Source: a virus. Taken from it: a stretch of 64,000 nucleotides of DNA. Of the stretch, positions 45,361 through 51,044 are shown in pieces (the stretch's first letter is position 1; the number at the start of each line of letters is the position of its first letter). The notes beneath the pieces were generated by a model. It did no database searches. It saw nothing but the letters and a program-made list of their open reading frames with translations, and was not told the origin of the DNA. The translations under genes were made by a program, and so were the position numbers. The stretch is taken from the IMG/VR virus record IMGVR_UViG_3300045996_001458, positions 1-64,000 of that record; one strand, 5' to 3'.

Positions 45361-45570
45361 TCACGCCACCGCCTCGCTGTAGTTCCGGGTAGTGGTGCCG
45401 TCGTCGAGGAACCAGACGCCCGGCCTGCCCGGGACCGGGCCGATCTCGACCGAGTCCAACCGCACGCCTCTGTCCGTGCGCTCTCCGTCGACCGGGATGA
45501 AGAACTCCCAGCGGTCACCGGCGCCGACGAAGATCCCGATGTACTGGATGGCGCGCTCGCGGTCGGTCAT
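45361..45570 (-). CDS. hypothetical phage protein
   Basis: Operon context. Confidence 0.5.
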   Translation of the reverse strand: MTDRERAIQYIGIFVGAGDRWEFFIPVDGERTDRGVRLDSVEIGPVPGRPGVWFLDDGTTTRNYSEAVA

Positions 45571-45784
45571 CACGCACCCGCCCGGAACGTCGGCGAGTCG
45601 GTCTCCATGCGCCACGCGAACATCAGCCGCACCAACGGGTCACCGGTGAGCGCGCGGGCCTGCTCGATGTCACGCCCGCCCAGAATGGAGAGCAGTCGGT
45701 CGTCGGCGGCGATCACGTTGTGGGCCTCGCGGACCCCCCCGGGGGACGCGGGGAGGTACGCGAGGAGTCTGCGGACGAGGGTGA

Positions 45785-46030
45785 TCACGCCGCACCGTCC
45801 ACCGGCAGCGGCCCGTAGGGCACCACGTCGAACGTCACGCGGGTGGTGTCGGTCTCCGTGTCGTACACGGCGTGCTTCGGGGTGAACTTCTCGCCCATCG
45901 TGTTCGGGCCGACGATCATCGTCGGGAACGACCGGGCGTCGGCGTACACCACACCGGGGTAGGTGGCGGCGAACTCCTTGGCGAACTTCACTGTGGGCTC
46001 CTCGGCGGTAGGAGAGGTACGGGGGTTCAT
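45785..46030 (-). CDS. hypothetical phage protein
   Basis: Coupled to upstream TasA-like gene. Confidence 0.55.
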   Translation of the reverse strand: MNPRTSPTAEEPTVKFAKEFAATYPGVVYADARSFPTMIVGPNTMGEKFTPKHAVYDTETDTTRVTFDVVPYGPLPVDGAA

Positions 46031-46920
46031 GCGGCACTCGCCCTGTCCGGCCCGGGCGCAGGGACGTGCACATCGGTGACGCCGTGCAGTCGTCGGGCCT
46101 CGATCCACAAGTCCTTCAGCACCGTCTTGGCGATGGCACGCAGAGCGCGACCGTGCTGGTGCGCGGGCGGCAACGGGGAGCCGACTTCGGCCGGCTTGCC
46201 ACTGGGTCCGCATTGTTTGCAGGGCACGTTGTGCACCGCGTCGGCGTACTTCGCCCGCGTCTCGTCGTAAACCGTGCGGTACTTCGAACCGGACGGGGCC
46301 TTCACGCACGAGGTGGCGATGAGCCACGCCCGCTTGCGGGCCTCTTGGGACCAGTTCGACTTCTGTCCGCGCGTCCGCTTGGGCGCGGTTGAATGGCTCC
46401 CGCCAGCGTTCACCATCTGGGTTTCGAGCACATAATGGCTGGCGGGAAGTTGGGTCCCAGTGGTGCGGGCGCCTTGGGTTTCGTCGCACGAATGACCACT
46501 GGGAAGTGTGTGGTATCCGCAGTACGCCCAGAGTTCGGACACGGTGCGGGGCCGCTGGTGCAGGGTGTTCCAGTACGGGTCGCCGATCTCGCCGAGCAGG
46601 CGGGCCAACTGCTTCTCGCCGACGCCGGTGGCCTGTTTGATCCACGGACCCCACTGCGAGCGGCGCATGTGCGACTGGAGCTGCTTGATCGCCTGGTCCT
46701 CCACGGCGGCCAGCGCTTCCAGCGACAGCGCGATGCGCTTCACGTCACGGTGGTCCTCGGGGAGTCCGAGGCTGCGGCGGATGCCGTCGTCGTCCACCTC
46801 GGTTGAGGTGAGCTGACGGAACCGGTTCCCGCTGGCGACGCGCAGGGACTCAAGGTCGTCCACCTGGGACGCGAGGATCTTCAGGAGCGGGTCGAAGAGC
46901 AGACCGTTGGGGTTGTTCAC
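46027..46920 (-). CDS. TasA-like RNA-guided DNA-binding protein (IS110/Nop-domain, no nuclease domain)
   Basis: Coiled-coil N-terminus; GVGEKQLARLLGEIGD (IS110 Transposase_20-like HhH), SELWAYCG, PKR.RGQ..NW, YRTVYD...KY, H..ALR..AK.VL.DLW; no DEDD RuvC domain; AAAGGAG RBS; adjacent guide array. Confidence 0.85.
   Translation of the reverse strand: MNNPNGLLFDPLLKILASQVDDLESLRVASGNRFRQLTSTEVDDDGIRRSLGLPEDHRDVKRIALSLEALAAVEDQAIKQLQSHMRRSQWGPWIKQATGVGEKQLARLLGEIGDPYWNTLHQRPRTVSELWAYCGYHTLPSGHSCDETQGARTTGTQLPASHYVLETQMVNAGGSHSTAPKRTRGQKSNWSQEARKRAWLIATSCVKAPSGSKYRTVYDETRAKYADAVHNVPCKQCGPSGKPAEVGSPLPPAHQHGRALRAIAKTVLKDLWIEARRLHGVTDVHVPAPGPDRASAA
46398..46504 (-). ncRNA. two TIGR-like stem-loop guide units embedded in frame in the TasA-like CDS
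   Basis: stem-(T/C)CA-9 nt-CGAAACCCA-9 nt-C-stem', CCCAACT linker, 57-bp period. Confidence 0.85.
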
Positions 46921-46937
46921 GGTGACTCCTTTGGTTA

Positions 46938-47225
46938 CCGACCAGGGCGCATGTCATCTGGGTTTCGCATCGTCATTGGCCCGGTCGGGAAGTTGGGTGC
47001 CGAAGGCGGTCCCGCCATGGGTTCCGCAAGCACGTTGGCCTTCGGCAAGTTGGGTGCCCGGACGGAAAGACCTTGGGTGTCGGACGGCCTTTGGTCCGGG
47101 CAATCTGAGTGCCAGCGGGGCGCAGGCTGTATGGGCCTCGGCAGGAGCGTGGCCCGGCTGGCGAGTTGGGATGCCAGCCTGACGGGAACCCTTTGGGCTT
47201 TGCGTACATCCTGGTCAGGCTGGCA
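46938..47225 (-). ncRNA. TIGR-like stem-loop array, 5 units with paired 9-nt spacers
   Basis: Each unit: 9-12 bp stem, CCA, 9-nt spacer A, loop repeat (CGAAACCCA/CGGAACCCA/CGACACCCA/CGAGGCCCA/CAAAGCCCA), 9-nt spacer B, C, stem'; linkers CCCAACT. Confidence 0.9.
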
Positions 47226-47230
47226 AGTCA

Positions 47231-47725
47231 TCAGTGCTTCAACACCTCTCGACCGACCTCGGGGTCGAGCGATGCGACGGTGTCCACCCCGAACTCCGTC
47301 ACGGCGGTCAGCAGGCGCTCGTAGCGCTCCGCCTCCGCCAGAACCTCGGCGGCCTTGCTCCGCCGCGAAGAGACCAGGTACTCCAGGTCCCGCGCGGAGC
47401 AGTCACCGAGACGCTTCCACGACTCGCCCACGTACACGGAAGCGGAGAGTTCGGCGCTGTACCAGTCGATCAGGGCGGCCGTCGCGGCACTCGCCGTTCG
47501 CTGACCGGACTTCGTCTTGTACGTCGCCGGATCGGCCGCGGGCTGCACGACCGGGCGGGACAGGACGTGGCGGACGTACTCCCGCAACGTCACCGACACC
47601 ACCACGTGCGCCTCGGCGTCCGTCAGGTTGGACAGCAACTTCTCCGTGACCACACCGGGGTCCGGGTCGTGCTTGCCCAACTCGGCGATAGCCGTCCGGA
47701 GATCGCTCGAAGACTCGATGCTCAC
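47231..47725 (-). CDS. hypothetical protein directly upstream of the guide array
   Basis: GTGA overlap with antirepressor; WKRLGDCSARDL motif. Confidence 0.75.
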   Translation of the reverse strand: MSIESSSDLRTAIAELGKHDPDPGVVTEKLLSNLTDAEAHVVVSVTLREYVRHVLSRPVVQPAADPATYKTKSGQRTASAATAALIDWYSAELSASVYVGESWKRLGDCSARDLEYLVSSRRSKAAEVLAEAERYERLLTAVTEFGVDTVASLDPEVGREVLKH

Positions 47726-48552
47726 GCCACACCGTCCTCATCCAGGACGAGCGGAGCGGTCCCACCCATCCGCTTGTGCAGATAGGACAGACCAGCCACC
47801 GTCACCCGCACCTGCGGCTTCGCCGGCACCTCCTCCTTGGTGTAGGAGTCGACCCGCGTACGGGGCCGCAGGGTGACGTGTGCCGAGTGGTTCGAGTACG
47901 GCTTGTCACCGGGGCCGATCAGCCGCCAGGACCGCAGCAGCTCGAACAGCCGGCGCTGGCCGGTGGAGATCGACGGATCCCGGTTGAGGATGTAGGCGGC
48001 CTCCCGCACCGAGTAGTCCGCGCCGGTGTCCGCGAGGACGTCCCACGACACGGCGCGGGGACGCAGCTCGATGACCTCGGCCTCGGCGGTGTCGGCACGC
48101 AGCGCTTCACGATCCGCGCGGTCCGCCTCGGCGATGACCATCTCCGCCAGCTCGCGGCGACCGATGGCAGTGACGTCCACGCGGGGTGCGGTCTCCGCCT
48201 CGCGGGTCTTCACAGCGAAGTAGACACGCGCCTCGGCGACGGCCTTCTTCGTGTCGTCACCGGCCATCGCGGTCAGGTACGCCGCGAAGCGGGTGAGCCG
48301 GTAGTCGTCCAAGCGCTGGTTGCCCCACCGCCCGCCATCACTTCCCGCGGCCAGGAAGTGATGGTCTGCCGAATCGGCACCTTCGACCAGCGACAGGGAG
48401 TACCTGGCCTTGGAGATGACGGCCGCGAAGTTCTCCCACTTCAGGTAGTCCATCACCGGGGCGAGGTCGCGCCCGGTCCAGAACTCGCCGGCCTCGTCGG
48501 TGCGACGGATGGCATCGAACTGGGACGAGCCGAAAAGGGTGAGGTCGGTCAT
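47722..48552 (-). CDS. phage antirepressor (DinD/Bro-like N-terminus + ANT/KilAC C-terminus)
   Basis: FDAIR...EFW.GRDL...Y..WENF...DYRLTRFAAYL.AM.GD..K; YSVREAA.IL...GQRRLF..LR, VRVT..GL. Confidence 0.88.
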   Translation of the reverse strand: MTDLTLFGSSQFDAIRRTDEAGEFWTGRDLAPVMDYLKWENFAAVISKARYSLSLVEGADSADHHFLAAGSDGGRWGNQRLDDYRLTRFAAYLTAMAGDDTKKAVAEARVYFAVKTREAETAPRVDVTAIGRRELAEMVIAEADRADREALRADTAEAEVIELRPRAVSWDVLADTGADYSVREAAYILNRDPSISTGQRRLFELLRSWRLIGPGDKPYSNHSAHVTLRPRTRVDSYTKEEVPAKPQVRVTVAGLSYLHKRMGGTAPLVLDEDGVA

Positions 48553-48562
48553 GTCGTCCGCC

Positions 48563-48790
48563 TCACGCCGCGTCGGCGATGAGGGCGTCGATGAGGCCGA
48601 GGGCTTCCTCGCCGAACAGCCGGCTGACCTCGGTGACGGGGATGTAGAGGCGGTTGCCGAGGCGGGTGACCGCGATCTCGCCGTTTTGGATGGCGACCCT
48701 GACGGCCTTGACCTTCATGCCGGTGATCTGGGCGAACTCGGCGGGAGTGAGGGACACCCGCTTCGGCCGGGGGCTGTTCTGGGGGGTCAT
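48563..48790 (-). CDS. excisionase / Cro-like HTH protein
   Basis: LTPAEFAQITGMKVKAVRVAIQNGEI...RLGNRLYIP (HTH_17/Xis pattern); divergent from repressor. Confidence 0.8.
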   Translation of the reverse strand: MTPQNSPRPKRVSLTPAEFAQITGMKVKAVRVAIQNGEIAVTRLGNRLYIPVTEVSRLFGEEALGLIDALIADAA

Positions 48791-49847: not shown

Positions 49848-51044
49848 ATGGGCAGGCCGCCGCTTGAACCTGGCACCGCAGGCAGCATCACCGTCACAGC
49901 CCTACCGGAGGGCGGCCATGTCGCCCGATGCCGGTTCGGCGACTACGACGGCGTCACCCGCCCGGTCGAGCGTCGCGGAAAGAACCAGCAGGCCGCGCGT
50001 GCGAACCTCCAGAAGGCGCTGAAGGATCGCAAGCGACTGGGTGGCGACGGTGAGATCGGCCCGGAGACCTTCGTGAAGGAGCTCGCCGAGCTGTGGTTCA
50101 CCAAGATCGAGGAGCGGGTGGCCGCCGGCAAACGGTCGCCGGGAACCGCGCGGACCTACCGCATCTACATGGACTCGCTCGTGATCCCGCTCATGGGCAA
50201 ACTCCGCCTCCGGCAGGTAACCGTGGGACGAGTCGACGCGCTCATCGCCGCGGCAGTGAAGGAGAAAGGGCCGGGTGCGGCGAAGACCACGCGGGCGGTG
50301 ATCTCGGGCATCCTCGGCATCGCCGTCAGGCACGACGTACTCGACGCGAACCCGACCCGCGAGGCCGAGGTGATCGAGTCCCCCGACAAGAAGCCGGCCA
50401 GGGCGCTGACGCTGGACGAGGTGGCGCTCATACGTGGGAAGGTCCGCAGCGACAAGCGGTCCGCGGCGCGGGACCTCCCCGACTTGGTGGACATGCTGCT
50501 TGCCACGGGACTACGCATCGGTGAGGTCTGCGCGATCACCTGGGACTCGCTGAATCTCGACGCGCGGACTGTCGAGGTTCGGGGGGTGGTGATCAGAGTC
50601 AAAGGCCAGGGCCTCACCATCAAGACGTATCCGGGGTCCAAGACGAAACACCGGACGCTGCTTCTTCCTCGATGGGCCGTCGCGATGCTGCTCGATCGGC
50701 AGGTGAGGCAGATACCGAACGAGTGGAACGTGGTGTTCACGTCCCCAAGGGGATTCCTGCGCGACCCCAGTAATACAAACGCGGATCTGCGGGACGTTCT
50801 CGACAAGGCCGCCGTCGATGATCAGGGCATGGAGGTGTTCCCTGCGATGGAGTGGGTGACGAGCCATGTCCTCGGCCGCAAGACGGTGCTCACGCTGATG
50901 AACCTCGCCGGGCTTCCGGCCAGCGCGGCGGCGGACCAGGCGGGACACTCGAAGGTGTCGATGACGCAGGACCACTACTTCGGCAGGAAGACCACCGACA
51001 CGGGGGCCGCAGACCTGCTGGACGACCTGTTCGAGTCCAAGTAG
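49848..51044 (+). CDS. int: tyrosine integrase
   Basis: LATGLRIGEVCAITW (R), TSHVLGRKT (H..R), AGHSKVSMTQDHY (H, Y). Confidence 0.95.
   Translation: MGRPPLEPGTAGSITVTALPEGGHVARCRFGDYDGVTRPVERRGKNQQAARANLQKALKDRKRLGGDGEIGPETFVKELAELWFTKIEERVAAGKRSPGTARTYRIYMDSLVIPLMGKLRLRQVTVGRVDALIAAAVKEKGPGAAKTTRAVISGILGIAVRHDVLDANPTREAEVIESPDKKPARALTLDEVALIRGKVRSDKRSAARDLPDLVDMLLATGLRIGEVCAITWDSLNLDARTVEVRGVVIRVKGQGLTIKTYPGSKTKHRTLLLPRWAVAMLLDRQVRQIPNEWNVVFTSPRGFLRDPSNTNADLRDVLDKAAVDDQGMEVFPAMEWVTSHVLGRKTVLTLMNLAGLPASAAADQAGHSKVSMTQDHYFGRKTTDTGAADLLDDLFESK

Follow-up and report, generated by a model that had tools for sequence, protein, structure and literature searches.

A probable stem-loop TIGR-TasA system with a constant upstream partner gene in a temperate soil actinophage

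The window analyzed here, the whole stretch of DNA under study, is the first 64 kb of the IMG/VR virus record IMGVR_UViG_3300045996_001458, and the whole record is 82,067 bp long. Its minus strand carries tasA, a gene for a Nop-domain protein, and seven guide units, of which five are located upstream of tasA and two in frame within it. We read this locus as a stem-loop TIGR-TasA system and put the probability of this reading at about 0.88. The reading was built on the anatomy of the units, the family membership and fold of the protein, the conservation of the system across relatives, and the strand on which the units lie. The stem-loop type of TIGR-TasA has already been published, including its intragenic guides and its ability to repress (Faure 2025, PMC12045711; Xu 2026, 10.64898/2026.09.09.750476). 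A preliminary description of the same DNA had called the system TIGR-TasA-like. This name held, as the protein passed the TIGR-Tas equivalog model and matched TasR and TasH in profile searches, and the units contained boxes C and D.

The tasA gene (protein P0001) occupies positions 46027-46920 of the minus strand. It has a GTG start behind AAAGGAG and encodes a predicted nuclease-free Nop-domain protein of 297 aa. The protein matched the NCBIfam model NF052498.1 (TIGR_Tas_endo, an equivalog described as 'TIGR-Tas system RNA-guided endonuclease') with an E value of 2.1e-64 and 217.4 bits, the cut-off being 100, and the match spanned model positions 1-215 of 215. A Pfam search found no domain in TasA, including PF01548 and PF02371. 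The PHROGs label for the protein was 'transposase' (phrog_4285, E = 1.7e-95). Forty-five homologs, which shared 50-77% identity in the alignment and varied in their tails beyond residue 278, were used to build a profile. When this profile was compared with the PDB, TasR (9MTY chain A) was matched with an E value of 3.9e-18 and TasH with 7.1e-9, and nothing else was credible. The alignment with TasR opened at TasR residue 142, past the TasR RuvC domain. TasA begins directly with its first long helix (residues 11-38), which leaves no space for a RuvC or HNH domain.

The 3D structure of TasA was modeled as a monomer with AlphaFold 2, giving a predicted local distance difference test score (pLDDT) of 84.6 and a predicted template modeling score (pTM) of 0.78. 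Two long N-terminal helices (residues 11-38 and 58-87) are followed by a C-terminal RNA-binding domain. In the monomer model, these two helices aligned with the coiled-coil of TasR and TasH. A Foldseek search with the model returned only TasH and TasR at PDB ranks 1-10 (E values of 3e-7 to 9e-6, template modeling (TM) scores of 0.52-0.75). The next ranks were IS621 and ISCro4 (E of ~8e-3, TM of 0.43), followed by faint rows of Nop5, Nop58 and Prp31. This agreed with the preliminary description, in which the protein was said to be IS110 C-terminal/Nop-like without RuvC or HNH. An IS110-family transposase was rejected on three grounds: neither PF01548 nor PF02371 was found, no room is left before the first helix, and the matches to IS621 and ISCro4 were weak (E 8e-3, TM 0.43). 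By sequence and modeled fold, the protein is a TasA without a nuclease domain.

A second feature of the protein is an H230-x3-C234-x2-C237 ... H254 element (46159-46233, minus strand), a beta insertion before the last helix with short strands at residues 229-249 in the model. In the 45 homologs, H230, C234 and C237 were invariant and H254 was kept in at least 90%. In the profile alignments, neither TasR nor TasH had the CxxC. These patterns suggested that the element is probably a zinc-binding insertion. The H...CxxC...H insert noticed earlier is thus real and conserved in the homologs, but it is a clade-specific insertion and is distinct from the insert encoded by the intragenic guide units.

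All seven guide units are on the minus strand and share one layout: a variable stem, CCA (box C), the 9-nt spacer A, CG (box D), AAAC, CCA, the 9-nt spacer B, CG, and the stem again. The 30-nt interior of every unit reads CA-N9-C(G/A)NNNCCCA-N9-C. When the seven units were aligned without gaps, the last stem pair was C-G, and the loop was CGAAACCCA in three units. An inverted-repeat search found arms of 9-12 bp, spaced exactly 30 nt apart, for U1-U4 and for both intragenic units. For U5, 33 nt separated the arms as called, and 30 nt when one stem bulge was allowed. The fixed interior confirmed the unit structure given in the preliminary description (CCA, two 9-nt spacers, a 9-nt loop and a stem).

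The upstream array consists of U1 to U5. U1 (47172-47225) has a 12-bp stem and the spacers GGATGTACG and AAGGGTTCC; its internal box D is degenerate, being CA and not CG. U2 (47111-47162) has an 11-bp stem with one mismatch and the spacers CGCTCCTGC and TACAGCCTG, U3 (47055-47102) a 9-bp stem and the spacers AAGGCCGTC and AGGTCTTTC, and U4 (46998-47047) a 10-bp stem and the spacers ACGTGCTTG and TGGCGGGAC. The stem of U5 (46935-46991) has one bulge, and its spacers are ATGACGATG and GATGACATG. The 3' arm of U5 stops 2 nt ahead of the tasA ribosome-binding site (AAAGGAG, 46926-46932). The two intragenic units, both in frame, are U6 (46455-46504), with a 10-bp stem and the spacers TTCGTGCGA and AGGCGCCCG, and U7 (46398-46447), with a 10-11-bp stem and the spacers TTATGTGCT and GATGGTGAA. 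The five upstream units had been described before, and all five were found within 1-3 nt of their earlier places; U6 and U7, inside the open reading frame, had been overlooked. The linker CCCAACU(U/C) occurs at four of the five unit-to-unit junctions. The earlier claim of CCCAACT-like linkers therefore stood for three of the four upstream junctions and for the intragenic one, and failed for one upstream junction.

Two of the upstream units have features of their own. The promoter-proximal U1 (47184-47213) has the loop CAAAGCCCA, with CA at the internal box D, and may be a degenerate end-of-array unit. In U5, the two spacers have the word ATGAC in common with a one-base offset, and the predicted target ATGACGATGCATGTCATC is partly palindromic.

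The intragenic units coincide with a flexible part of the protein. Residues 141-177 are the sole internal disordered stretch of the TasA model, and the intragenic units encode residues 139-175. The codons of U6 specify residues 139-156, inside or beside this stretch. Homologs of 247-262 aa are entirely without the insert encoded by U6 and U7, indicating that it is dispensable for the TasA fold.

Several tests indicated that the seven-unit array is more than chance. The loop motif alone has 49 copies in the 82-kb genome. Stems of at least four pairs were found only at the seven copies in the locus, whereas the flanking stems of the other 42 copies had at most two pairs. Across the seven units, 12 of 12 stem pairs vary on both sides. 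In the stems, 84.5% of the cells were paired, compared with 55% after shuffling, and none of 500 shuffles reached the observed value. Pairing fell to 24-46% when the partner was slid by 1-3 columns. Stems that differ between units and still pair, as the preliminary description had it, were thus confirmed. On folding, five separate hairpins were obtained for the upstream array (z = -3.7) and two for the intragenic stretch (z = -3.6). A CRISPR array was considered and rejected: Tandem Repeats Finder returned nothing, because the stems differ between units, and block conservation is confined to the 9-nt loop with the boxes. An Rfam search of 46200-47400 found no family and gave one chance sub-threshold row for a small nucleolar RNA.

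TasA homologs were collected from 102 further loci, of which 74 were from IMG/VR, 23 from GTDB genomes and five from metagenomes; with the present locus, the set contained 103 loci from actinobacterial phages and prophages. The genomes include Streptomyces, Kitasatospora, Actinomadura, Mycobacterium, Micropruina, Microbacterium and others. A metagenome scan gave no TasA relative above 59% identity, and the closest relatives overall, at 70-77% identity, were on Logan contigs. Units were counted with a strict pattern (the boxes plus a stem of at least seven pairs). Over the 103 loci, 509 units were on the tas strand vs 4 on the opposite strand. By position relative to tas, 374 units were upstream, 93 inside and 40 downstream. 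At least one unit was present in 87 of the 103 loci, and intragenic units were present in 49. These counts are underestimates, as the strict pattern misses units such as those of the phage BPBiebs31, which has a 10-nt loop repeat.

The units of the relatives were also compared with each other. Among 359 distinct units, the G of the two boxes D was kept in 96% and 90%, and the C before CA in 86%; none of these letters was imposed by the search pattern. The 359 units had 359 distinct spacer pairs, and no pair recurred among 471 distinct units either. Spacer composition in the 359 units was nearly even. The clade-wide linker consensus is roughly CCnARAC(U/C).

Some TasA homologs (P0031, P0113, P0005 and P0071) are extended at the N or C terminus by stretches with many D/E-T-Q/H triplets. 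Such triplets are translated CGAnACCCA, indicating that guide units are also embedded at the 5' and 3' ends of tasA in relatives, and the wide spread of TasA lengths (241-497 aa) results from such embedding. In a Streptomyces synnematoformans prophage, one guide (L092:2445-2474) has the spacers TGGGCGCAA and GGGCGCAAT, which consist of a single word at a one-base offset. The 18-bp target predicted from this guide thus forms a nearly perfect inverted repeat, resembling an operator or a terminator stem.

TasA homologs are also present in cultured phages. At least 90 cultured phage records carry one (83 from Mycobacterium, five from Gordonia, one from Rhodococcus and one from Arthrobacter). They are annotated as 'hypothetical protein' or 'transposase' and belong mainly to Fromanvirus-type phages of Mycobacterium smegmatis. 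An example is BPBiebs31 (NC_042327.1; L104:2687-4193), in which gp75 (the partner described below), the array and gp74 (tasA) follow each other; the RefSeq label of its TasA homolog is 'transposase'. Upstream of the module are the repressor (gp80) and a gene for superinfection immunity (gp78). The BPBiebs31 array has the 10-nt loop repeat CGAACGCCCA, and for this reason the strict pattern misses most of its units.

A gene for a 164-aa protein (P0121, phrog_4604) is located at 47231-47725 of the minus strand, and the array begins 5 nt past its stop codon. When nine neighbour proteins were compared with the related loci, only this one recurred. A profile of its family found it in 96 of the 103 tas loci, and in each of these it was upstream of tas and on the same strand. 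Its gene ends 5-1466 nt ahead of tas, where the upstream units sit. For three of the seven loci without it, the sequence ends just upstream of tas. In five lysogen genomes, the partner gene was single-copy and located at the tas locus. A reverse test was performed with 400 sampled Actinomycetes genomes: both new strong partner matches had tasA and an array directly downstream, and one marginal match (E = 9e-4) had neither. In addition, 85 cultured phages carry the partner gene, with the same host breakdown as for TasA. These results suggested that the conserved 164-aa protein is probably a functional partner of the system.

The family of the partner has ~2,530 clusters at 50% identity, and the best 150 by score are almost all stand-alone proteins of 150-210 aa. 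Its structural model (pLDDT 91.9) has an N-terminal helical bundle, followed by a helix, a beta-hairpin and a long helix. Searches of Pfam, NCBIfam and PADLOC found no match to it, and the protein atlas had no usable match. Foldseek against the PDB gave a best E value of 2, with no convincing match to a solved fold. The highest Z in the VIA-align wide search was 5.3, for a match that covered just the long helix, and in BFVD only uncharacterised mycobacteriophage proteins were matched. A ParB identity was rejected, as there were no Pfam ParB matches at E values up to 5 and no ParB-like fold match. Three papers on these systems that were searched for it (PMC12045711, 10.64898/2026.09.09.750476 and 10.64898/2026.08.11.744272) do not mention the gene; they name only tasParB, which belongs to dual-repeat systems. 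Tentatively, and with more doubt than confidence, we suggest that actinophage stem-loop TIGR-TasA may be a three-part system with an obligatory ~160-aa protein, which might act as a guide-maturation factor or as an effector that TasA brings to its DNA target. The former role is proposed because stem-loop Tas proteins are without the Tyr/His processing loop.

The anatomy of the locus can be compared with published systems. In tigRNAs, box C is CCA 5' of each spacer and box D is UG 3' of it; the G of the latter is paired with the C of the former, and within the loop repeat an A-rich tetraloop lies between the two boxes (PMC12045711). Stem-loop arrays have variable palindromes in place of edge repeats, and they are processed and bound by a TasA (PMC12045711). 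A later preprint by the same group reported 2,559 stem-loop arrays, with guides inside tas coding sequences mapping to disordered loops, CUU at the stem base marking the processing site, and reversible guide-dependent transcriptional repression by TasA and dead TasR (10.64898/2026.09.09.750476). Cryo-electron microscopy structures of stem-loop TasA have been published (10.64898/2026.08.11.744272). Array processing and TasA binding were shown for PlTasA and BlTasA, and spacer-dependent DNA binding for MbTasA and PlTasA.

These named stem-loop TasA proteins come from a Peromyscus leucopus gut contig (PlTasA) and Bifidobacterium longum (BlTasA), with MbTasA as the third. Like them, the present system combines a nuclease-free Nop-domain protein with tandem hairpins that have variable palindromic stems, two ~9-nt spacers each between boxes C and D, a 9-nt loop, and CUU under most stems. 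Similar to the case of BlTasA, some units are upstream of the gene and others are embedded in it, where they fall in a disordered loop. A difference is that box D is CG here, whereas it is UG in published tigRNAs, including that of TaTasR. Another is the conserved H-CxxC-H insertion before the last helix, which distinguishes this clade from PlTasA, BlTasA and MbTasA. Unlike what is reported in the papers on these three proteins, a 164-aa upstream gene is nearly constant here.

More distant systems share parts of this design. The Nop domain of TasA is homologous to that of TaTasR (PDB 9MTY) and SpTasH (PDB 9W04), and the guides have box C CCA, 9-nt spacers and an A-rich loop between box D and box C in common. 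Unlike TasR and TasH, TasA here is without RuvC or HNH and is therefore not expected to cleave. In place of the conserved edge repeats there are stems, and the conserved C-terminal Tyr/His processing loop is missing, the tails past residue 278 being variable. The IS110 bridge-RNA recombinases (IS621, PDB 8WT6/8WT9; ISCro4) share the C-terminal RNA-binding fold and a two-part guide. In contrast to these enzymes, the present system has no DEDD/RuvC and no transposon ends, no recombinase activity is expected of it, and it has many short guides and not one bridge RNA. In TasParB-TasA operons (Faure 2025, fig. S14), as here, a small gene is kept with tasA and the array lies between or around both. 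Those operons have dual-repeat arrays, whereas the partner here is not ParB-like and accompanies stem-loop arrays.

The carrier of the system is a temperate soil actinophage. CheckV rated the 82,067-bp record as complete, and its G+C content is 68%. In a sequencing-run lookup, the sequence occurred in soil metagenome DNA runs only, in small shares. A near-identity search with 45500-47800 gave 0 matches in 50,697 phage records. In a host search, the nearest genomic relatives were at most 53% identical and were scattered over many actinobacterial genera. A tyrosine integrase gene (49848-51044, plus strand) is divergent from the minus-strand operon, in which two unknown genes are followed by the genes for an Xis/Cox-like HTH_17 protein (48563-48790) and a KilAC antirepressor (47722-48552), the 164-aa gene, the array and tasA. 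The order Xis, antirepressor, unknown gene, array, protein had been given correctly before. We take this operon to be the early leftward operon of the temperate phage, with the system at its head. A sigma-70-like promoter scan between the partner gene and the array, a type of scan ill-suited to actinobacteria, found no site. The gene after tasA (45570-46073, minus strand) overlaps the tasA stop codon (ATGA). No relative of it occurred in the 102 related loci, and family searches gave nothing but a faint row for the anti-sigma-D factor RsdA (E = 0.07).

By analogy with the published systems, guide processing, TasA dimer formation, DNA binding and repression would proceed as follows. The operon transcript, with the Xis-like helix-turn-helix (HTH) gene, the antirepressor gene, the partner gene, the array and tasA, would be cut in the CCCAACUU linkers, giving single hairpin guides of ~50-57 nt. 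Each guide would display two 9-nt spacers, each bordered by a CCA box C and a CG box D, and one guide would be bound by a TasA dimer. The complex would then unwind an 18-bp DNA site, where spacer A would base-pair on one strand and spacer B, on the opposite strand, with the neighbouring half of the site. As TasA is without a nuclease, the complex would stay bound and block transcription or another DNA transaction. Because U6 and U7 lie in codons of the disordered loop of TasA, making guides from them should compete with translation of the tasA mRNA.

A number of observations weigh against the locus being a stem-loop TIGR-TasA system that acts in this way. The internal box D of U1 is degenerate, and CUU is present at the stem base in five of the seven units here and in 29% of units clade-wide. 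Among the sequencing runs listed, no RNA run contained this sequence, which bears on transcription and processing. Targets were modeled as spacer A plus the reverse complement of spacer B, a geometry that we ourselves derived from the 8-nt 3' overhang reported in the literature and from the box-C cut rule; the other geometry served as the control in local searches. In the phage's own 82-kb genome, no guide had a site with two or fewer mismatches in either geometry, and a single 3-mismatch match was found where ~0.8 was expected by chance. When the 359 guides were searched against the 103 loci and the phage's own genome, no target with one or no mismatch was found in either geometry, and the two-mismatch counts for the two geometries were alike, at 16 and 19. 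An exact 18-mer scan of IMG/VR returned nothing for six of the seven guides. The one match, that of U7, was to a virus of 46% GC that had been sampled four times; this is at chance level and shows that the scan works. Three guides had 0 exact matches in 221 sampled Actinomycetes genomes; they had 0, 1 and 3 one-mismatch matches, with ~1.4 expected for each. Together with the search for a known lysogen described below, these results did not support self-regulation or conserved host targets.

The same TasA machine might have another natural job. Silencing of host chromosomal genes during infection or induction would suit a system placed in an early operon beside an antirepressor, and in the literature reprogrammed TasA and dead TasR repressed a chromosomal E. 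coli gene. However, for the prophage of Streptomyces sp. NBC_01590, six guides had no target with 0-1 mismatch in its own complete 10.1-Mb genome, and nine two-mismatch matches were found, vs 6-11 in four non-cognate genomes. The absence of recurrent spacer pairs among the 471 distinct units is also easier to reconcile with a moving target than with conserved host genes. We therefore regard host gene silencing as an unlikely natural job. Less probable still is action on the phage's own DNA, either as control of its own transcription or as a DNA-bending aid to integrase and Xis, as speculated in Faure 2025. The tas locus is ~3 kb from int and shares an operon with the Xis-like HTH protein, and a DNA bend of nearly 180 degrees is known from the published TasR complex, but the complete genome offers no guide site beyond the chance 3-mismatch match. 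In addition, the partner-array-tasA module has unrelated neighbours in other phages and is therefore not tied to the integration cassette.

The remaining alternative denies the guides altogether. The hairpins would be generic palindromes, such as terminators, repeats like repetitive extragenic palindromic (REP) elements or mRNA stabilisers, and the protein a decayed IS110-type transposase without a guide function. It could draw on the 'transposase' label in RefSeq and PHROGs, on the lack of a direct repeat in Tandem Repeats Finder, and on the lack of an Rfam family. Against it, boxes C and D stand in fixed register with two 9-nt variable blocks in every hairpin, the units are strand-specific (509 vs 4) and in frame inside the gene, and the protein is without the DEDD/RuvC of IS110 enzymes, passes the TIGR-Tas model and is conserved, some of its residues being invariant in the 45 homologs (50-77% identity). 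We give this explanation almost no credence.

For the stem-loop TIGR-TasA system preferred here, the lack of a self-target, the lack of a target in the known lysogen, and the lack of repeated spacer pairs among the 471 units argue against self-regulation and conserved host targets and make rare mobile elements the likeliest prey. Imperfect pairing is also possible. The natural targets of TIGR-Tas systems were stated to be undetermined in the 2026 preprint (10.64898/2026.09.09.750476). With low confidence, we suggest that the natural role may be the silencing of competing mobile elements or of strain-specific host loci. The preliminary description had called the system early-expressed and had proposed that it silences host or competitor genes; these are points that we, too, only infer.

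Because the core system has been published already, the present example leaves the understanding of the TIGR-TasA mechanism unchanged. It locates a complete system at the head of a putative early operon, in a temperate phage whose genome is complete. Beyond the published kind, it shows a constant upstream partner gene, and no natural target was found in the searches made. The partner gene is a concrete candidate for two questions of the 2026 preprint, namely how stem-loop guides are processed and how a bound nuclease-free Tas protein acts. The most useful new lead is this constant gene together with the occurrence of the same module in cultured mycobacteriophages. As at least 90 records of cultured phages, chiefly M. 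smegmatis phages such as BPBiebs31, contain the module, its biology can be studied in a tractable host.

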